Of a stretch of 16,210 bases of DNA, positions 7,813 through 15,510 are shown piece after piece. Positions within the stretch are counted from its first letter, which is position 1; every line of letters starts with the position of its first letter. The notes beneath the pieces were generated by a model. It was not told where the DNA came from and made no database searches. It was given only the letters and a program-made list of their open reading frames with translations. A program made the position numbers and the translations under genes. The DNA comes from a virus (Duplodnaviria; Heunggongvirae; Uroviricota; Caudoviricetes), in IMG/VR virus record IMGVR_UViG_2534681773_000025. One strand, given 5' to 3'.

Positions 7813-7968
7813 TTACTCCTCAGGTTCGTAAGCTGTGAAGACAGCGACCTCCGTCTGGCCGGTTCGGATTCGTACCTCGCAGAGGTCTTTCCTCGTTACC
7901 AGTGCCGTCACTATGACGGTTAAACAGATGACGATCAGGGCGATTAACATCGCCTTTTGCTGCTTCAT
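7813..7968 (-). CDS. hokD: Hok/Gef-family type I toxin (small membrane peptide)
   Basis: 51-aa ORF MKQQKAMLIALIVICLTVIVTALVTRKDLCEVRIRTGQTEVAVFTAYEPEE, the canonical Hok sequence; I recall it as matching the Qin hokD/relF product. AAGGAG ribosome-binding site upstream. Confidence 0.9.
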   Translation of the reverse strand: MKQQKAMLIALIVICLTVIVTALVTRKDLCEVRIRTGQTEVAVFTAYEPEE

Positions 7969-8025
7969 AGCCTGCTTCTCCTTGCCTTTCGGCACGTAAG
8001 AGGCTAACCTACGTGTGTAGAGCAT
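7813..8025 (-). CDS. mok: mok-like in-frame leader reading frame covering hok
   Basis: 70-aa ORF starting at ATG 8025 and continuing in frame through hok, as in mok/hok loci where translation is coupled. Confidence 0.5.
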   Translation of the reverse strand: MLYTRRLASYVPKGKEKQAMKQQKAMLIALIVICLTVIVTALVTRKDLCEVRIRTGQTEVAVFTAYEPEE

Positions 8026-8100
8026 AGATATGGCCTCAGATTAATGTTAAGCGTCTTGCCGGACGCGTAATGTTAACTGGGGCTTTTCTCTATCTGCCTT
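8000..8100 (+). ncRNA. Expected position of a Sok-like antisense RNA (not resolved)
   Basis: Inferred from hok/sok architecture: the antisense RNA overlaps the mok translation-initiation region from the opposite strand. A weak promoter-like TTGCCT - 17 nt - TAACCT lies at about 7982..8010; no clean terminator identified. Confidence 0.2.
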
Positions 8101-8118
8101 TGGTGTTGATGCCCGAGG
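8085..8118. repeat. Perfect 10-bp inverted repeat (CTATCTGCCT ... AGGCAGATAG) with a 14-nt loop in the hok leader region
   Basis: Read directly from the sequence; probably a structural element of the hok mRNA leader. Confidence 0.5.
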
Positions 8119-8710
8119 CAGATAGCCTCAAGCACCCGCAGCAATTCTACTTAACTACCGTTACCTCGCCAATATGAAATCAATCAGAAAGGTGATCCAT
8201 AAGAACAACAGCAAGACAATAAATTGCCATTACAGCAGCAATAGCCAGCGCACATTTGAGAACCAGCACCACAACCTCCTGTATTGGACGTACACCAGTC
8301 CTGATAAATATGAGGCTGTCTCGTCAGTGATTCAATACAACTACTGGGTATAGTTTCTATGATTTTGTTCTGTGGAAATGGAAAACAGCAACCAGTCACC
8401 ACCAGCACTTCTTTAAACATGCCAAGTCACACGCAAGCCAACATTATAGTTCCCTTTGAGCGAGCAGATGAAGCTAGCAAAAATATTGATCACTTAGGAT
8501 GCATTACTAACGTTGCTATGTGTTAACGAACAGGGAGTGGGTCATCAGCATAAATATTTATGCAGTAGGTTTCTTTTAGGACTAGATTAATCAAAAACAT
8601 TTAGATAAAATTATAAAATCAAGAAATTGGTGGCAATTAATCTTTAATTGTGCCAGCTGAATTTCGTTATTATAGAAGATTAGCTTTTTTTTGAGTGTTT
8701 GGAGAGTAAA

Positions 8711-9406: not shown

Positions 9407-9418
9407 ACGAGGTTGATT

Positions 9419-10072
9419 TTGAATTACAAAATAAATGGAATAAACATACGTTCAGAAAATGCAGCGAAACCGCACACTATGCCATCTAACTATCTCTGTA
9501 AACAGATTGAAAGCACTAATAAAAATGGCAATGCCCTTGATTTTGGATGTGGAAAACTTAGATATTCAGAACAATTAGTAAATAAATTTGAAACTGTGAC
9601 ATTTTTAGATTCCAGAAGACAACTAGAAAGAGTGCAAATTATCAGAGGTGTACAAACCACGATTCCAGATTACGTGATAAATAACTATAAGAATGCTAAT
9701 ATTGTTTCTTATGAAAATATAGATAAAATAACAAATCATTATGATTTCATACTTTGCGCAAACGTGCTTTCCGCAATTCCATGTGAATCCACAATTCACA
9801 AAGTCCTCAGTGCGATTAGAGAATTATTAAAGAGTGATGGTGAAGCACTGATTGTCAATCAATACAAAAGTTCTTATTTCAAGAGGTACGAGAGCGGTAT
9901 TAAACATTTGCATGGGTATATATACCAAAACTCTCGCAATGCTTTCTACTATGGTTTATTAGATGTGGATACTGTAAGTAAAATATGCTCAGATAATAAT
10001 TTAGAAATAATAAAATCATGGAGCAAAGCAGGTAGTTCATATGTGGTTGTTGGTAAACATATACATATTTAG
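9419..10072 (+). CDS. Class I SAM-dependent methyltransferase-like protein (small-molecule/RNA type, not a DNA methyltransferase)
   Basis: Motif I ALDFGCGKLRY. Start is TTG at 9419 (GAGG 6 nt upstream) or TTG at 9413, 7-13 nt after the membrane protein stop, indicating an operon. No DPPY/NPPY motif. Confidence 0.65.
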   Translation: MNYKINGINIRSENAAKPHTMPSNYLCKQIESTNKNGNALDFGCGKLRYSEQLVNKFETVTFLDSRRQLERVQIIRGVQTTIPDYVINNYKNANIVSYENIDKITNHYDFILCANVLSAIPCESTIHKVLSAIRELLKSDGEALIVNQYKSSYFKRYESGIKHLHGYIYQNSRNAFYYGLLDVDTVSKICSDNNLEIIKSWSKAGSSYVVVGKHIHI

Positions 10073-10386: not shown

Positions 10387-11286
10387 TTATAAATCAACAA
10401 CATTTAGTGTTATATCAATATTATTTAGCCTTGCAATCTCTGATGAATCACTTGCTATTTTAGCTTTTAATTTATCAATATTAATCATATCTTCATGGCT
10501 TATATAAACCATATCACCTTGGTTAACTTTAGATTTGTTCACTATGGCTTGAATAACAGACAAATCATCCATTACACCTCTCATAAATTTCACCATGCTT
10601 TGATCTTTGAAGTCAGATATCGATTTTGAACGTTGCTTACGTTGAATTGTTCCTTTTGTAATTACTTCATTAATTTCTTTTAAACCAGTGAGCATATCAG
10701 ACAGACTGCCTTCGCAACTCATCCGATGTTTTATTGCATTGCGATTAATAATATTGAGTATAATTTCGAGTGAATCTTTATCACTCCATGGATGTAATGA
10801 TGTATAATCATGATGGCGTCGAATGGCGTCAATCATATCCTGGACCATATCTTCATCTGCTTTATCGCAAAGTTCATTCACGAAATAGCTGGGGTCGATT
10901 ATTTTACAATAACTTGGAGTTAGGTATCTTGAGGCTTTACAAAAACCAAAAATATATAAAGTAGAGTATTTATCTTTCAGACTCTCTCCTATTTCATTTA
11001 TTTTCTCAAAAGATTCGATAGTTTTTTTAATTTTTGCTGGACTTGCATTCGTAGTAACTTGAACTGCTATCATGTTTTTATTATCAGCTAAATCAATGGC
11101 GGGAAAATTAACTTTAATCTGATTCATGTTTACCAGTTCACCCATTTTCAGCGCGCGAAACATAAAGATGGTCAATGACTCAATTATTCTTTCCATGTCA
11201 TGAAAGCCTGCCTGTTTGCGTTGCGCGATATAAAGCTGGAGTAGTGCAATATCACTCTGTAAGTTTCTAATAAGTGGATCAATCAT
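10387..11286 (-). CDS. Hypothetical 299-aa cytoplasmic protein, AT-rich, convergent with the membrane/methyltransferase operon
   Basis: ATG 11286 with AAGGA ribosome-binding site. N-terminal block NFPAIDLADNKNMIAVQVTTNASPAKIKKTIESF resembles PD-(D/E)xK-like or SMEK-type N-terminal modules, but this is unverified. Confidence 0.65.
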   Translation of the reverse strand: MIDPLIRNLQSDIALLQLYIAQRKQAGFHDMERIIESLTIFMFRALKMGELVNMNQIKVNFPAIDLADNKNMIAVQVTTNASPAKIKKTIESFEKINEIGESLKDKYSTLYIFGFCKASRYLTPSYCKIIDPSYFVNELCDKADEDMVQDMIDAIRRHHDYTSLHPWSDKDSLEIILNIINRNAIKHRMSCEGSLSDMLTGLKEINEVITKGTIQRKQRSKSISDFKDQSMVKFMRGVMDDLSVIQAIVNKSKVNQGDMVYISHEDMINIDKLKAKIASDSSEIARLNNIDITLNVVDL

Positions 11287-11563: not shown

Positions 11564-12469
11564 CTATATTTCCAGACATCTGTTATCACTTAACCCATTA
11601 CAAGCCCGCTGCCGCAGATATTCCCGTGGCGAGCGATAACCCAGCGCACTATGCGGATGCCATTCGTTATAATGCTCGAACGCCTCTGCAAGGTTCTTTG
11701 CTGCCGTTAACCCGTCTGGTTTGGGCATGATACTGATGTAGTCACGCTTTATCGTTTTCACGAAGCTCTCTGCTATTCCGTTACTCTCCGGACTCCGCAC
11801 CGCCGTGTTCTTCGGTTCAAGTCCCAACATCCGGGCGAACTGGCGTGTTTCATTAGCCCGGTAGCATGAACCATTATCCGTCAGCCACTCCACTGGAGAC
11901 GACGGAAGATCGTTGCCGAAGCGGCGTTCCACCGCTCCCAGCATGACGTCCTGTACTGTTTCACTGTTGAAGCCGCCGGTAGTGACCGCCCAGTGCAGTG
12001 CCTCACGATCACAGCAGTCCAGCGCGAACGTGACACGCAGTCTCTCTCCGTTATCACAGCAGAACTCGAACCCGTCAGAGCACCATCGCTGATTGCTTTC
12101 TTTCACGGCCACTCTGCCTGTATGTGCCCGTTTCGATGGCGGTACAGCAGGTTTTCGCTCAAGCAACAGCGCATTCTGGCGCATGATCCGGTAAACACGT
12201 TTGGCATTGATCGCAGGCATACCATCAAGTTCTGCCTGTCTGCGAAGCAGCGCCCATACCCGACGATAACCATACGTGGGCAGCTCTCCGATAACATGGT
12301 GTATACGGAGAAGCACATCCGTATCATCAGTGTGACGACTGCGGCGGCCATCCATCCAGTCATCGGTTCGTCTGAGAATGACGTGCAACTGCGCACGCGA
12401 CACCCGGAGACAACGGCTGACTAAGCTTACTCCCCATCCCCGGGCAATAAGGGCGCGTGCGCTATCCAC
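11564..12469 (-). CDS. insD: IS2 transposase OrfB (InsD); expressed as an OrfAB fusion by -1 frameshift
   Basis: 301-aa [33 protein letters not shown]... with a DDE transposase/integrase core. Confidence 0.9.
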
Positions 12470-12792
12470 TTTTTTGCCCGTCCATATTCAACGGCTTCTT
12501 TGAGGAGTTCATTTTCCATCGTTTTCTTGCCGAGCAGGCGCTGGAGTTCTTTAATCTGCTTCATGGCGGCAGCAAGTTCAGAGGCAGGAACAACCTGTTC
12601 TCCGGCGGCGACAGCAGTAAGACTTCCTTCCTGGTATTGCTTACGCCAGAGAAATAACTGGCTGGCTGCTACACCATGTTGCCGGGCAACGAGGGAGACC
12701 GTCATCCCCGGTTCAAAGCTCTGCTGAACAATTGCGATCTTTTCCTGTGTGGTACGCCGTCTGCGTTTCTCCGGCCCTAAGACATCAATCAT
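12427..12792 (-). CDS. insC: IS2 OrfA (InsC) HTH regulator/transposase N-terminal part
   Basis: 121 aa from ATG 12792 ([26 protein letters not shown]...). The 136-aa track ORF starts further upstream inside the inverted repeat. Confidence 0.9.
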
Positions 12793-12880
12793 CTGTTCTC
12801 CAATGACTAGTCTAAAAACTAGTATTAAGACTATCACTTATTTAAGTGATACTGGTTGTCTGGAGATTCAGGGGGCCAGT

Positions 12881-13297
12881 CTATAAATATCGAGCATTTC
12901 CCTGATAGAATGCTAGTATGCGCTGCATAACTTCACTCTTCCGGCACTCGCGACAGATTATGTTCTGACGCCTGTCGTAGCGACGTATTTCTCCGTCAGG
13001 TAATGACCAGATAAGGTCCGGATCAACCGCAGATGGTTCCTTCAGCTTTGCCCTTGAGAGCTTTTTACGGGCATTTTGCCAGTCCTTACGCGCCTGTTCA
13101 GACGGGAATAACCCGTAACCAGAGTTGTATACATCGCCGCTGGCAACCAGCTCTCTTGCGAGAACGCTCATCAGATATCTTGTCGCACCTGTCTTGACTT
13201 CCAGTTGCCGTAACGTCTCACGCCCACTCCGGCGTACGAGTTCAACAACCTGCCCTTTAATTTTTTCCCGCTCTTCTTGTGTAAAAACTTTTGCCAC
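12881..13297 (-). CDS. Hypothetical 138-aa protein downstream of the replication initiator; its stop codon is supplied by the IS2 end
   Basis: GTG start with AGGAGG ribosome-binding site. The present stop TAG is the terminal CTA of IS2. The reconstructed pre-insertion sequence would end ...RYLLK-stop, so the insertion trims two residues. Confidence 0.6.
12884..12888. repeat. IS2 target-site duplication, right copy (TAAAT)
   Basis: Matches 11548..11552. Confidence 0.85.
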
Positions 13298-13337: not shown

Positions 13338-14303
13338 TTACCCCCTGAAGCCCGGCGGAATTTCGGTATCCGGCTCAGAAATATGATTCACACAACGCTG
13401 TACAGACGAACGCCCCAGGCGGATAACCAGTTCATCCCATTTTTCGCGAAGCTTTGACGGACTCATGATATTTTTTACCCAGAATGGATCCCGCTGCACC
13501 CGACCAAACATTTCACAAATTTGTCTGTGAGTTCTGCCATCCAGCATCCGCATTGTGCGCACGTCGTTGGCCCATGCGGTCCAGTTGGGTTCTTTCGGTC
13601 GCGAAATCTCGCCATCATCGCTGGCGGCCTGCTCGTAAAGACTCACGATTCGCCCCCAGATCCACTGCGCACACGCCAAATCTTCCTGGCTGCCCCACTG
13701 GCGTTTTTTCGCACTGAACACAACCGCGTCAGGGTGTCGGGTTAAAAAATCCTGTTCAACCGTCTGCGGGTCCGGTTGCGAAGCTTCCGGACGAGAAGTC
13801 TTTTTATTCTCTGTAGTAATCTCTGTTGTATTCTCTGTAAGATCATCAGGCCATTTTGACCCGATGACATTGAGTCGTTTTGAACCAATGGAGCGTTTCA
13901 TTTTGACCTCTTCCATCGTGTCATTTTGACCTGATGGAGCGGCGCATTTTAAACCGATGGATTCGCTCAATTTGCCACCATCTAAAAGCTCGCTCCCGTA
14001 GTTGATCGTGTAGAAATTGGTCATATCGCGCTTTGATTTATTGAGCTTTTCACAACGCAAAAGCCCCAGCGTTTTCAGACTTGCAAACGCGCGCTTTAAC
14101 GTTGACTCTGACCAGAATGGGAACTGTTCCAGCCATTGTTCCGTTGTGTTATAAATCCAGCGAACACCATCACATTCCATGCCGGAGTTGGTATCTCTCA
14201 ACCAGTAGTGCAGTTGTTGCAAAACAATGGCTTCGTTTAAGCCAATTTTCATTGCCAGCTGCGTGTTTATAACCAGTGGGCGTTCAGCAAAAAGAAGACT
14301 CAT
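13338..14303 (-). CDS. Phage replication initiator (lambda O-like replisome organiser) with ori iterons inside the gene
   Basis: The track ORF starts at TTG 14357; the likely start is ATG 14303. N-terminal winged-helix-like region (...WSESTLKRAFASLKTLGLLRCEKL...), a central repeat-encoding linker (IGSK repeats, TENTTEITTENKK) and a conserved-looking C-terminal domain. Family assignment is by architecture, not by search. Confidence 0.65.
   Translation of the reverse strand: MSLLFAERPLVINTQLAMKIGLNEAIVLQQLHYWLRDTNSGMECDGVRWIYNTTEQWLEQFPFWSESTLKRAFASLKTLGLLRCEKLNKSKRDMTNFYTINYGSELLDGGKLSESIGLKCAAPSGQNDTMEEVKMKRSIGSKRLNVIGSKWPDDLTENTTEITTENKKTSRPEASQPDPQTVEQDFLTRHPDAVVFSAKKRQWGSQEDLACAQWIWGRIVSLYEQAASDDGEISRPKEPNWTAWANDVRTMRMLDGRTHRQICEMFGRVQRDPFWVKNIMSPSKLREKWDELVIRLGRSSVQRCVNHISEPDTEIPPGFRG
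13851..13990. repeat. Origin-like iteron array (about six ~23-bp repeats, core TTTTGACC-n-GATGGA) next to an AT-rich stretch (13800..13850)
   Basis: Repeats read from the sequence: cattttgacccgatgaca, gttttgaaccaatggag, attttgacctcttccatcg, attttgacctgatggag, attttaaaccgatggat, aatttgccaccatct. Layout resembles lambda ori inside O. Confidence 0.6.
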
Positions 14304-14805: not shown

Positions 14806-15019
14806 TGTTCAACCGCCCCGCCCGCTTCGTCTTACGATATTCATCATAAACTTTGGGATCATACTGAAGCTCCCCGCCAGATGCCTCCTGTAGACGCATC
14901 GCGCGACCTTCGGGAACTAAATCCCCTTTCCAGCTATAAAGCGAAGCCAAACGAATACCTGCTGCTTGTGCAAGTTTTGTTTTTGAACCGAAATACAAAA
15001 GAGCGTCAGTTTTAAGCAT
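14789..15019 (-). CDS. dicC: DicC, Cro-like regulator of the Qin immunity region
   Basis: 76 aa MLKTDALLYFGSKTKLAQAAGIRLASLYSWKGDLVPEGRAMRLQEASGGELQYDPKVYDEYRKTKRAGRLNNENHS, divergent from dicA. Confidence 0.85.
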   Translation of the reverse strand: MLKTDALLYFGSKTKLAQAAGIRLASLYSWKGDLVPEGRAMRLQEASGGELQYDPKVYDEYRKTKRAGRLNNENHS

Positions 15020-15042
15020 TTAAAACACCTTTATTGTTAGTC

Positions 15043-15096
15043 ATAACTAACAAAATAGATGTTAACAAAAACATAGTCAATACGATTTAGCATTAG
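15043..15096. promoter_or_regulatory. dicA/dicC divergent promoter region with two operator-like palindromes
   Basis: TTGTTAGT-cata-ACTAACAA (15043..15062) and TTAGC-atta-GCTAA (about 15083..15096) share the half-site TTAG(C/T). Confidence 0.5.
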
Positions 15097-15102
15097 CTAA
15101 CT

Positions 15103-15510
15103 ATGGAAACAAAAAATTTAACTATCGGCGAACGCATTAGGTATCGTCGGAAAAACCTCAAACACACCCAAAGGTCTCTTGCTAAAGCCCTGAAAATCTC
15201 CCATGTGTCTGTATCACAATGGGAACGGGATGATAGTGAACCTACAGGGAAGAACCTTTTTGCCCTCAGCAAAGTATTGCAATGCTCACCAACATGGATT
15301 CTATTTGGCGATGAAGACAAGCAACCAACACCACCTGTTGAGAAGCCAGTTGCCTTATCCCCCAAAGAACTAGAGCTCCTTGAGCTGTTTAATGCACTGC
15401 CAGAATCAGAACAGGATACCCAGCTCGCCGAAATGCGAGCTCGAGTAAAAAACTTCAATAAACTCTTTGAAGAATTACTAAAAGCCCGTCAGCGGACAAA
15501 TAAAAGATAA
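15103..15510 (+). CDS. dicA: DicA, cI-like HTH repressor of the dicB cell-division-inhibition operon
   Basis: 135 aa METKNLTIGERIRYRRKNLKHTQRSLAKALKISHVSVSQWERDDSEPTGKNLFALSKVLQCSPTWILFGDEDKQ..., matching E. coli DicA as I remember it. Confidence 0.92.
   Translation: METKNLTIGERIRYRRKNLKHTQRSLAKALKISHVSVSQWERDDSEPTGKNLFALSKVLQCSPTWILFGDEDKQPTPPVEKPVALSPKELELLELFNALPESEQDTQLAEMRARVKNFNKLFEELLKARQRTNKR

Follow-up and report, generated by a model that had tools for sequence, protein, structure and literature searches.

The origin of replication of phage lambda lies inside its initiator gene O and is described in terms of four iterons, an AT-rich region and the O-some (PMC7466680); it is the model for the mechanism proposed below. 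The origins of the Stx phages 933W and P27 have six lambda-type iterons in the O gene (PMC7466680). Here, we analyzed a 16,210-nucleotide stretch of a Caudoviricetes virus (IMG/VR record IMGVR_UViG_2534681773_000025; hereafter the window), in which the gene of an O-like replication initiator contains a series of direct repeats next to an AT-rich segment. An earlier note on this DNA had proposed that the layout mirrors the lambda origin inside O, and the order that we find, namely N-terminal domain, iterons, AT-rich segment and C-terminal domain, agrees with this proposal. The array is very probably an origin-type combination of iterons and unwinding element, bound by the product of its own gene and situated in the linker-coding part of the initiator of a lambdoid (Qin/DicA-immunity type) E. 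coli prophage.

The arrangement is the classic lambdoid layout in kind, and the version described here is widespread and nearly always unannotated. In the literature, we found no description of these iterons and no test of this origin; PHROGs already groups the protein as 'O-like'. Reports on the Eru replication types of Stx phages deal with different modules, and literature matches to pIGMS31 and BTP1 were irrelevant.

Results

A repeat array and an AT-rich segment inside the initiator gene

The elements of the gene that concern the putative origin are the following, iterons being numbered in the direction of the gene:

13338-14303, minus strand: O-like replication initiator gene, an open reading frame (ORF) of 966 nt and 321 aa with its ATG at 14303 and its stop codon at 13338-13340
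13983-14303, minus strand: N-terminal domain (aa 1-107), presumed iteron-binding winged-helix domain
13962-13985, minus strand: iteron 0, degenerate, TTAGATGGTGGCAAATTGAGCGAA; 24 bp, in register, only 12/23 identical to iteron 2
13939-13961, minus strand: iteron 1, TCCATCGGTTTAAAATGCGCCGC
13916-13938, minus strand: iteron 2, TCCATCAGGTCAAAATGACACGA; exact match to the core given in the earlier note
13893-13915, minus strand: iteron 3, TGGAAGAGGTCAAAATGAAACGC
13870-13892, minus strand: iteron 4, TCCATTGGTTCAAAACGACTCAA
13846-13869, minus strand: iteron 5, TGTCATCGGGTCAAAATGGCCTGA; 24 bp
13800-13845, minus strand: AT-rich segment, presumed DNA-unwinding element, TGATCTTACAGAGAATACAACAGAGATTACTACAGAGAATAAAAAG; 46 bp, directly following the iteron array
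13770-13792, minus strand: GC-rich dyad, possible boundary element, GTCCGG-n11-CCGGAC with GAAGCTTC inside; just past the AT-rich segment
13416-13757, minus strand: C-terminal helical domain (aa 183-296), homologue of the lambda O C-terminal domain; AlphaFold pLDDT 65-82

The array occupies positions 13846-13985 of the minus strand and consists of five clear 23-bp repeats and a degenerate one, with the consensus TCCATCrGGTCAAAATGACnCGA and spacings of 23, 23, 23, 23 and 24 bp. The earlier note had counted six imperfect direct repeats of ~23 bp. Five of these stand as clear copies at a spacing of 23-24 bp, while the sixth is degenerate (12/23), so that the six are not equal. At the position of iteron 0, relatives carry a clear copy (mEp460_4F5, GAAGAGGTCAAAGTGAACGAA; Klebsiella phage ST147-VIM1phi7.2, GATGAGGTCAAAGTGACCAAA). 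The coordinates and core motif given for the array were correct: the plus-strand core TTTTGACCnnATGGA has one exact match and four more with 1-3 mismatches, all within 13854-13961. The location inside the initiator coding sequence holds as well, the minus-strand ORF at 13338-14303 matching PHROG 391 'replication initiation O-like' over its full length (E 4.5e-95; residues 17-321 against profile positions 11-298 of 298).

The repeats stand out statistically. With up to 3 mismatches allowed, the core TTTTGACCnnATGGA occurs 13 times in the whole window, against 5.4 +/- 2.2 expected, and 0/200 shuffles reach 13; for GGTCAAAATGAC with up to 2 mismatches, 4/5 window matches lie within 13850-13931. 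The lag-23 autocorrelation at 13856 (0.564) is the highest among all 140-nt windows and lags of 12-40 in the 16 kb, the runner-up being 0.478 and the maximum over 5000 shuffles 0.451. This periodicity scan scored no second iteron-like array in the 16-kb window, and the Rfam search gave no structured-RNA family overlapping the origin site.

Imperfect palindromes with the pattern CATCnGGTCA-AAA-TGACCnGATG and 7-8 of 10 dyad matches are seen in iterons 2, 4 and 5. Iteron 2 together with the next 4 nt makes up a 27-bp near-palindrome, TCCATCAGGTCA-AAA-TGACACGATGGA, and the dyad of iteron 5 reads CATCGGGTCA-AAA-TGGCCTGATG (8/10).

The AT-rich segment that had been reported next to the repeats is found at 13800-13845 with 30% GC. 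More precisely, GC content is 30% at 13800-13839 vs 40-65% in the flanks, and no other 41-bp duplex of the gene is as unstable (dG -45.6 kcal/mol for the segment vs a gene mean of -56.7, sd 3.9). It contains three tandem 12-mers, TTACAGAGAATA, at 13805-13840. The strand complementary to these 12-mers carries phased CTG triplets. CTG is the start site of E. coli primase, and any link between the two is pure speculation. At the position of the GC-rich dyad, the Klebsiella and Pantoea relatives have another small dyad, GGTTGC-n3-GCAACC. In lambda, a palindrome lies to the right of the AT-rich region.

Codon conservation over the array

In an AlphaFold model, the part of the protein encoded by the iterons and the AT-rich stretch (aa 108-178) is predicted to be disordered (pLDDT ~25) and lies between the folded segments 14-100 and 183-296. 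The model was built from 16 close homologues and, given a mean pLDDT of 54, is used here for domain boundaries and a weak fold lead only. We compared the codons of the window gene with those of E. coli phage mEp460_4F5 and Klebsiella phage ST147-VIM1phi7.2, each ~78% identical to it (values for identical codons among identical residues in this order):

Iteron codons 106-152: aa identity 0.64; nt identity 0.80-0.82; identical codons among identical residues 24/27 and 26/28
N-terminal domain: aa identity 0.75-0.78; nt identity 0.68-0.72; identical codons among identical residues 36/74 and 26/73

The excess of identical codons in the iterons over the N-terminal domain is significant for both mEp460_4F5 (24/27 vs 36/74, Fisher p=2e-4) and the Klebsiella phage (26/28 vs 26/73, Fisher p=1e-7). 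In the AT-rich stretch, all conserved residues have an identical codon (11/11 to 13/13, including the comparison with a Pantoea phage; 12/12 vs the Klebsiella phage). Selection here acts on the DNA, which codes for a tolerant linker, and not on the peptide, because synonymous codons of the iterons are nearly frozen while the peptide is less conserved, predicted to be disordered and, within the repeated core, read in three frames.

These data bear directly on the idea that the periodicity reflects a repeated peptide, or chance, and has no cis-acting role in the DNA. SIG(L/S)K and VIGSK do recur in the translation, as a coding repeat would require. However, 23 bp cannot be divided evenly into codons, and the three reading frames are all used for the core, with unrelated peptides as the outcome (SIGLKC, SGQNDT, EEVKMK, SIGSKR and VIGSKW); amino acid identity in the iterons is lower, and synonymous identity far higher, than in the folded N-terminal domain; and the segment is predicted to be disordered. 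Chance is further opposed by a periodicity above that of all 5000 shuffles, and both forms of the idea are contradicted by the family-wide repeat test described below. We regard a coding repeat or a chance periodicity as barely credible.

The AT-rich element is conserved as well. Its codons are 100% identical among the E. coli, Klebsiella and Pantoea relatives, and the block shows 97.5% identity over 40 nt with the corresponding stretch of the O genes of Stx1/Stx2 phages, whose iterons are different. Furthermore, the nucleotide sequence of the TTACAGAGAATA-type 12-mers is conserved between initiator families, and phages of Gram-positive hosts still show them as CAGAGA/CAGATA repeats. The conserved CAGAGA/CAGATA 12-mers may be a specific single-strand recognition motif rather than a matter of mere AT-richness.

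The layout across the family

We scanned IMG/VR with Erwinia-first and Staphylococcus-first alignments of the N-terminal domain, which gave 77 dereplicated loci, and scored segments for at least three 11-mers at 20-26-nt spacing:

Just after the N-terminal domain: at least three periodic 11-mers in 69/77 loci; CARANTG 2.09 per segment; CAGAKA 2.62 per segment
Inside the N-terminal domain (control): at least three periodic 11-mers in 1/77 loci; CARANTG 0.14 per segment; CAGAKA 0.29 per segment
Next 280 nt downstream (control): at least three periodic 11-mers in 2/77 loci; CARANTG 0.22 per segment; CAGAKA 0.12 per segment

In all of the relatives read (16/16), the N-terminal domain is followed by 3-6 repeats that are centred on CAAAnTG and spaced 22-25 nt apart; repeats of the CAGAGA/CAGATA type come next. 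The hosts of relatives with this layout are Escherichia, Klebsiella, Pantoea, Erwinia, Hafnia, Pseudomonas, Staphylococcus, Bacillus, Listeria, Lactobacillus, Vibrio, Flavobacterium, Burkholderia and Stenotrophomonas. Phages of E. coli and Klebsiella have the repeat arm GGTCAAAATGACC, those of Pantoea and Erwinia GGGCAAATTGCCC, a Hafnia phage GGGACAAATTGTCC and a Staphylococcus phage GGGACAAAATGGCCC. The C-terminal domain varies across the relatives (lambda-O-like, Phg_2220_C or DnaB_2), as do the downstream genes, independently of N-terminal domain and repeat arms. In these comparisons, the repeat arms follow the N-terminal domain, and not the neighbouring genes or the C-terminal domain. Positions 67 and 73 are candidates for recognition-helix residues that covary with the arm bases, S..F being seen with GGTCA and D..L with GGGCA. 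From iterons unlike those of lambda, the earlier note had suggested a distinct initiator specificity, and this reading gains support: the lambda iteron is TCCCTCAAAACGAGGGA, the N-terminal domain is not of the Phage_rep_O family and the arms track it.

The Stx1 phage O gene (LC567819) has an unrelated N-terminal domain and unrelated repeats beside the same AT-rich 12-mers (locus L003 2501-2540). Such modularity of iterons and AT-rich element is expected where binding sites specific to one initiator adjoin an unwinding element of a generic kind.

The repeats may instead be sites of the initiator or another protein that serve mainly autoregulation, copy control or the exclusion of related phages, with replication starting elsewhere in the prophage. 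In plasmids, iterons also have roles in control and incompatibility, and related phages are inhibited by cloned fragments of lambda ori (PMC3349717, PMC4488673); moreover, unwinding at 13800-13845 is a prediction. Yet the repeats are always followed directly by the least stable, 12-mer-repeat AT-rich element. Its codons show no change even in the comparison of E. coli with Pantoea phages, as would suit an unwinding element and not a mere operator. The layout also equals that of the proven ori-lambda, and the window offers no other scored iteron-like array. A purely regulatory array hence seems improbable to us, and an origin-type array the far better reading.

This putative origin is common. 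Of 5426 complete E. coli genomes, 1886 have the ori segment (13790-13995) at a coverage of at least 80%, in as many as 4 copies, and the segment is 100% identical in other genomes; the gene around it in E. coli genomes is nearly always labelled 'hypothetical protein'. The plaque-forming phages PhiR42_1, HannyBb and mEp460_ev081 have the same gene and repeats at 93-95% DNA identity.

The initiator protein

The genes of PhiR42_1 ('DNA replication protein O') and HannyBb ('replication initiation O-like protein') are 94% identical in DNA to the initiator gene, whose RefSeq label is mostly 'hypothetical protein'. The ORF is intact and its product 97% identical to a protein cluster with 705 member sequences. 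By BLASTP, only aa 147-294 align to lambda O, namely to aa 135-270 (the C-terminal, P-interacting domain), with 35% identity over 148 aa (E 4e-28).

For the N-terminal domain, we found no Pfam family even at E<=10 and no NCBIfam model. Phage_rep_O (PF04492) is not matched by it, although lambda O matches at 5.7e-36 in the same search. With Pfam and NCBIfam, both N- and C-terminal domains of the initiator were without a family and the DnaT-like tail described below alone scored (17 bits), and searching PDB sequences with the protein or a profile of its N-terminal domain returned nothing but this tail and a chance-level winged-helix match. At 35-79% identity, the domain is present in 139 records of phages whose hosts are Gram-negative or Gram-positive. 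Its AlphaFold model shows a helix-helix-strand-helix-helix-wing topology (pLDDT 60-73), and the best Foldseek match, a weak one at E 0.016 and TM 0.49, is to RepA of a staphylococcal plasmid, namely to its N-terminal domain in complex with DNA (5kbj/4pql). The top matches 5kbj, 4pql and 4pt7 range over E 0.016-0.16 at TM ~0.49, on a model of that pLDDT and with no sequence-profile match beside them. By its presumed DNA-binding domain, the initiator falls outside the lambda O family, and the locus as annotated is no O/P module either.

Some database entries are 448-aa proteins in which the upstream YdaT/CII-like gene is fused to the O-like gene. In the window, these two ORFs overlap by 20 nt (14284-14303), and the 448-aa fusions may be frameshifted or mis-called genes.

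A DnaT-like tail and a possible route of helicase loading

The initiator ends in a further element:

13341-13406, minus strand: C-terminal tail (aa 300-321) copying the end of host DnaT, SVQRCVNHISEPDTEIPPGFRG

The last 17 residues are near-identical between initiator (VNHISEPDTEIPPGFRG) and E. coli DnaT (VNTVSEPDSQIPPGFRG), and the DnaT chains 2ru8, 6aep and 9zbt of the PDB align to the tail at ...VNTVSEPDSQIPPGFRG. The NCBIfam model of DnaT (NF002770, cutoff 201 bits) scores 17.2 bits at model positions 158-179 only, which excludes a full-length DnaT architecture. The 'Primosomal protein I' labels of relatives are due to this tail alone.

The tail behaves like a portable part. Initiators bear it in 45 phage records although their N- and C-terminal domains are unrelated; its identity is 95-100% on the enterobacterial ones, and it is followed either by a DnaC-like gene (cf. 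the host dnaT-dnaC operon) or by none. Its carriers include Tritos, Gifsy-1/2, Shigella 75/02 Stx, POCJ13 and SPN1S and, weakly, YdaU of Rac; a DnaC-like gene follows the initiator in Gifsy-2 and Shigella 75/02 Stx, and none does so in SPN1S and Tritos. We had considered that the DnaT tail replaces a loader, an idea weakened by the DnaC-like genes next to the tail-bearing initiators of Gifsy-2 and Shigella 75/02 Stx.

Directly downstream of the initiator, the window has no P, DnaC-type loader or helicase gene, the next genes being DUF977/Ren-like and then IS2-like. No loader or helicase gene is annotated beside the initiator gene in the mEp460_4F5, Klebsiella, Pantoea, Hafnia and Tritos relatives, nor anywhere in the 45-kb genome of HannyBb, the initiator being the sole annotated replication gene there. 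Since there is no P, DnaC or helicase gene, DnaB loading cannot take the lambda route and recruitment would have to go through the initiator itself. We hypothesize that the DnaT-like tail may be an adaptor to primosome or loader proteins of the host. The text of a recent preprimosome paper (2026) has the DnaT C-terminal domain docking on PriA and does not name the contact residues.

Genomic context of the initiator gene

The early-right operon runs in the order dicA, pR-like promoter, dicC/cro, CII/YdaT-like gene, O-like gene, DUF977/Ren-like gene, IS2-like insertion, nin-region genes and Q-like antiterminator. Features outside the initiator gene are:

15103-15510, plus strand: dicA
15052-15080, minus strand: pR-like promoter TTGACT-17-TATTTT, in the dicA-dicC intergenic region; from a consensus scan only
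12881-13297, minus strand: DUF977 / 'Ren-like exclusion' / LygF gene, occupying the place of lambda P and ren
11564-12880, minus strand: IS2-like element right after the DUF977 stop codon, with orfA at 12427-12837 (HTH_Tnp_1) and orfB at 11564-12469 (rve)
7963-8137, minus strand: sok antitoxin RNA of a hok/sok locus (Rfam/ARAGORN scan)
1243-1492, minus strand: three tRNA genes, Arg-tct, Arg-tcg and Met (Rfam/ARAGORN scan)
976-1166, minus strand: small RNA STnc100 (Rfam/ARAGORN scan)

A transcript from the pR-like promoter would cross dicC/cro, the cII/YdaT-like gene and the origin. The dicA-dicC intergenic region (15020-15100) contains an operator-like palindrome, TTAGTTATGACTAAC, and the second-highest periodicity of the window (lag 25, near 14996) also falls in the region between these genes. 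The DUF977/Ren-like family follows the initiator in phage Tritos as well, where the initiator has a different N-terminal domain. Genes of the nin-like region at 5913-7019 and 10387-11286 on the minus strand and 9413-10072 on the plus strand encode a protein with HTH and ImmA/IrrE metallopeptidase domains, a protein with a SMEK domain and a class I methyltransferase, and may have accessory or defence roles.

A prophage of E. coli O111:H2 strain 12A lacks the IS2-like insertion and otherwise matches the window at 100% identity. The element raises the question of whether the window holds an origin in structure but an inactive relic, i.e. an array that does nothing today in a defective prophage. 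The insertion directly after the DUF977 gene downstream of the initiator favours such a view, only 16 kb of the prophage are visible, and many Qin-like prophages are cryptic. Against it speak the intact initiator ORF with its 97% identity to the 705-member cluster, the identity of the ori segment in other genomes and its presence in about a third of the complete E. coli genomes (1886/5426), the near-identical modules of plaque-forming phages, and the fact that the insertion interrupts neither initiator nor ori. We consider a mere relic unlikely as an account of the array; whether the copy in the window prophage is active is uncertain, given the nearby IS2 and the view of only part of the prophage.

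Discussion

Modelled on ori-lambda, we propose the following mechanism for the origin-type array. Early rightward transcription from the pR-like promoter would yield the O-like protein and pass through the origin. Dimers of its N-terminal winged-helix domain would bind the 23-bp iterons, which number five or six, are partly palindromic (CATCnGGTCA-AAA-TGACCnGATG) and each have an A-tract, and the phased A-tract sites would wrap the DNA into an O-some-like complex. The resulting strain could open the adjacent 46-bp AT-rich element of TTACAGAGAATA 12-mers, upon which host DnaB would be loaded, with recruitment through the initiator itself. The likeliest recruiting parts would be the lambda-O-like C-terminal domain and the DnaT-mimicking tail, acting on components of the host restart primosome or on DnaC-DnaB. 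We infer each of these steps, that is initiator binding to the repeats, unwinding of the AT-rich segment, firing of the origin and the route of helicase loading, from the present analysis. Only tentatively do we suggest that the origin fires with a single phage protein, whose tail, possibly together with the lambda-O-like C-terminal domain, would plug into PriA/PriB or DnaC-DnaB such that DnaB is loaded without a phage loader.

Several observations weigh against this picture. Good palindromes are limited to iterons 2, 4 and 5, and iteron 0 is degenerate in the window. The model of the N-terminal domain is of moderate confidence, and its fold match to an iteron-binding RepA is weak (E 0.016). 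The DnaT-like tail, being present also on initiators with a DnaC-like gene after them, is no simple loader substitute. In the literature, we found neither binding nor origin activity reported for any member of the N-terminal domain family, and the IS2-like insertion ~460 bp downstream of the initiator gene makes the activity of the window copy uncertain.

Giving this initiator and its origin a name would fill a large gap in the annotation of prophages. Moreover, the family comparison provides a usable rule, namely a non-Pfam N-terminal domain followed by ~23-bp CAAAnTG-centred repeats and then by CAGAGA-type repeats, that could locate origins in phages of Gram-negative and Gram-positive hosts. 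A one-gene module with a DnaT-like tail would also be a tractable system for helicase recruitment to an origin without a dedicated phage loader, and could reveal the contacts of the conserved DnaT C-terminus.

Comparison with known systems

With E. coli DnaT, the initiator shares the tail alone; the N-terminal domain, linker and three-helix C-terminal domain of DnaT are absent from it. RepA_N-type initiators of plasmids and satellites bind iterons that lie midway along the initiator gene, and their C-terminal domain is host-specific. The RepA proteins of this type from staphylococcal pSK41/pTZ2162 (4pql, 4pt7, 5kbj) give the best, though weak, fold match to the N-terminal domain. They differ in that no Pfam or PDB profile match links them to it, the Foldseek E of 0.016 being obtained on a moderate-confidence model, and in serving plasmid and not phage replicons.

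Among phages of Gram-positive hosts, SPP1 (G38P/oriL) and 80alpha (ORF20) resemble the window in that the initiator binds repeats inside its own gene; unlike the window, they encode a helicase loader and/or a helicase. ORF20 of 80alpha shows no trans complementation, and its record annotates a putative origin (repeats and an AT-rich run) inside the gene. We considered ORF20 as an experimentally supported relative and rejected it, since it has no sequence similarity to the window initiator and is an analogue only. Staphylococcus P954, Bacillus vB_BhaS-171 and Listeria PLM34 do share the N-terminal domain, and we found no origin tests for them in the literature.

Closer to the window, the Stx1 phage O gene (LC567819) differs by its unrelated N-terminal domain, by repeats of the GGGAAACC type and by a DnaB-type helicase gene downstream. 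The origins of 933W and P27 also have six iterons in the O gene, but their O and iterons are of lambda type and they have P.

Ori-lambda itself is the closest in layout. Both origins have direct repeats at ~20-24-bp spacing that are imperfect palindromes around an A-tract (TCCCTC-AAAAC-GAGGGA in lambda, CATCnGGTCA-AAA-TGACCnGATG in the window), both have the AT-rich segment on the promoter-distal side of the repeats, and the C-terminal domains of the initiators are homologous (35% identity, E 4e-28). In contrast to lambda, the N-terminal domain of the window initiator belongs to another family and the iteron sequence is unrelated; there are 5-6 repeats instead of 4, and the AT-rich part is made of 12-mer repeats; no P gene follows the initiator, and the DnaT-like tail is absent from lambda O. 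Altogether, the comparison supports a lambda-type origin, in which iterons are followed by a putative unwinding element, with what would be an initiator specificity of its own.

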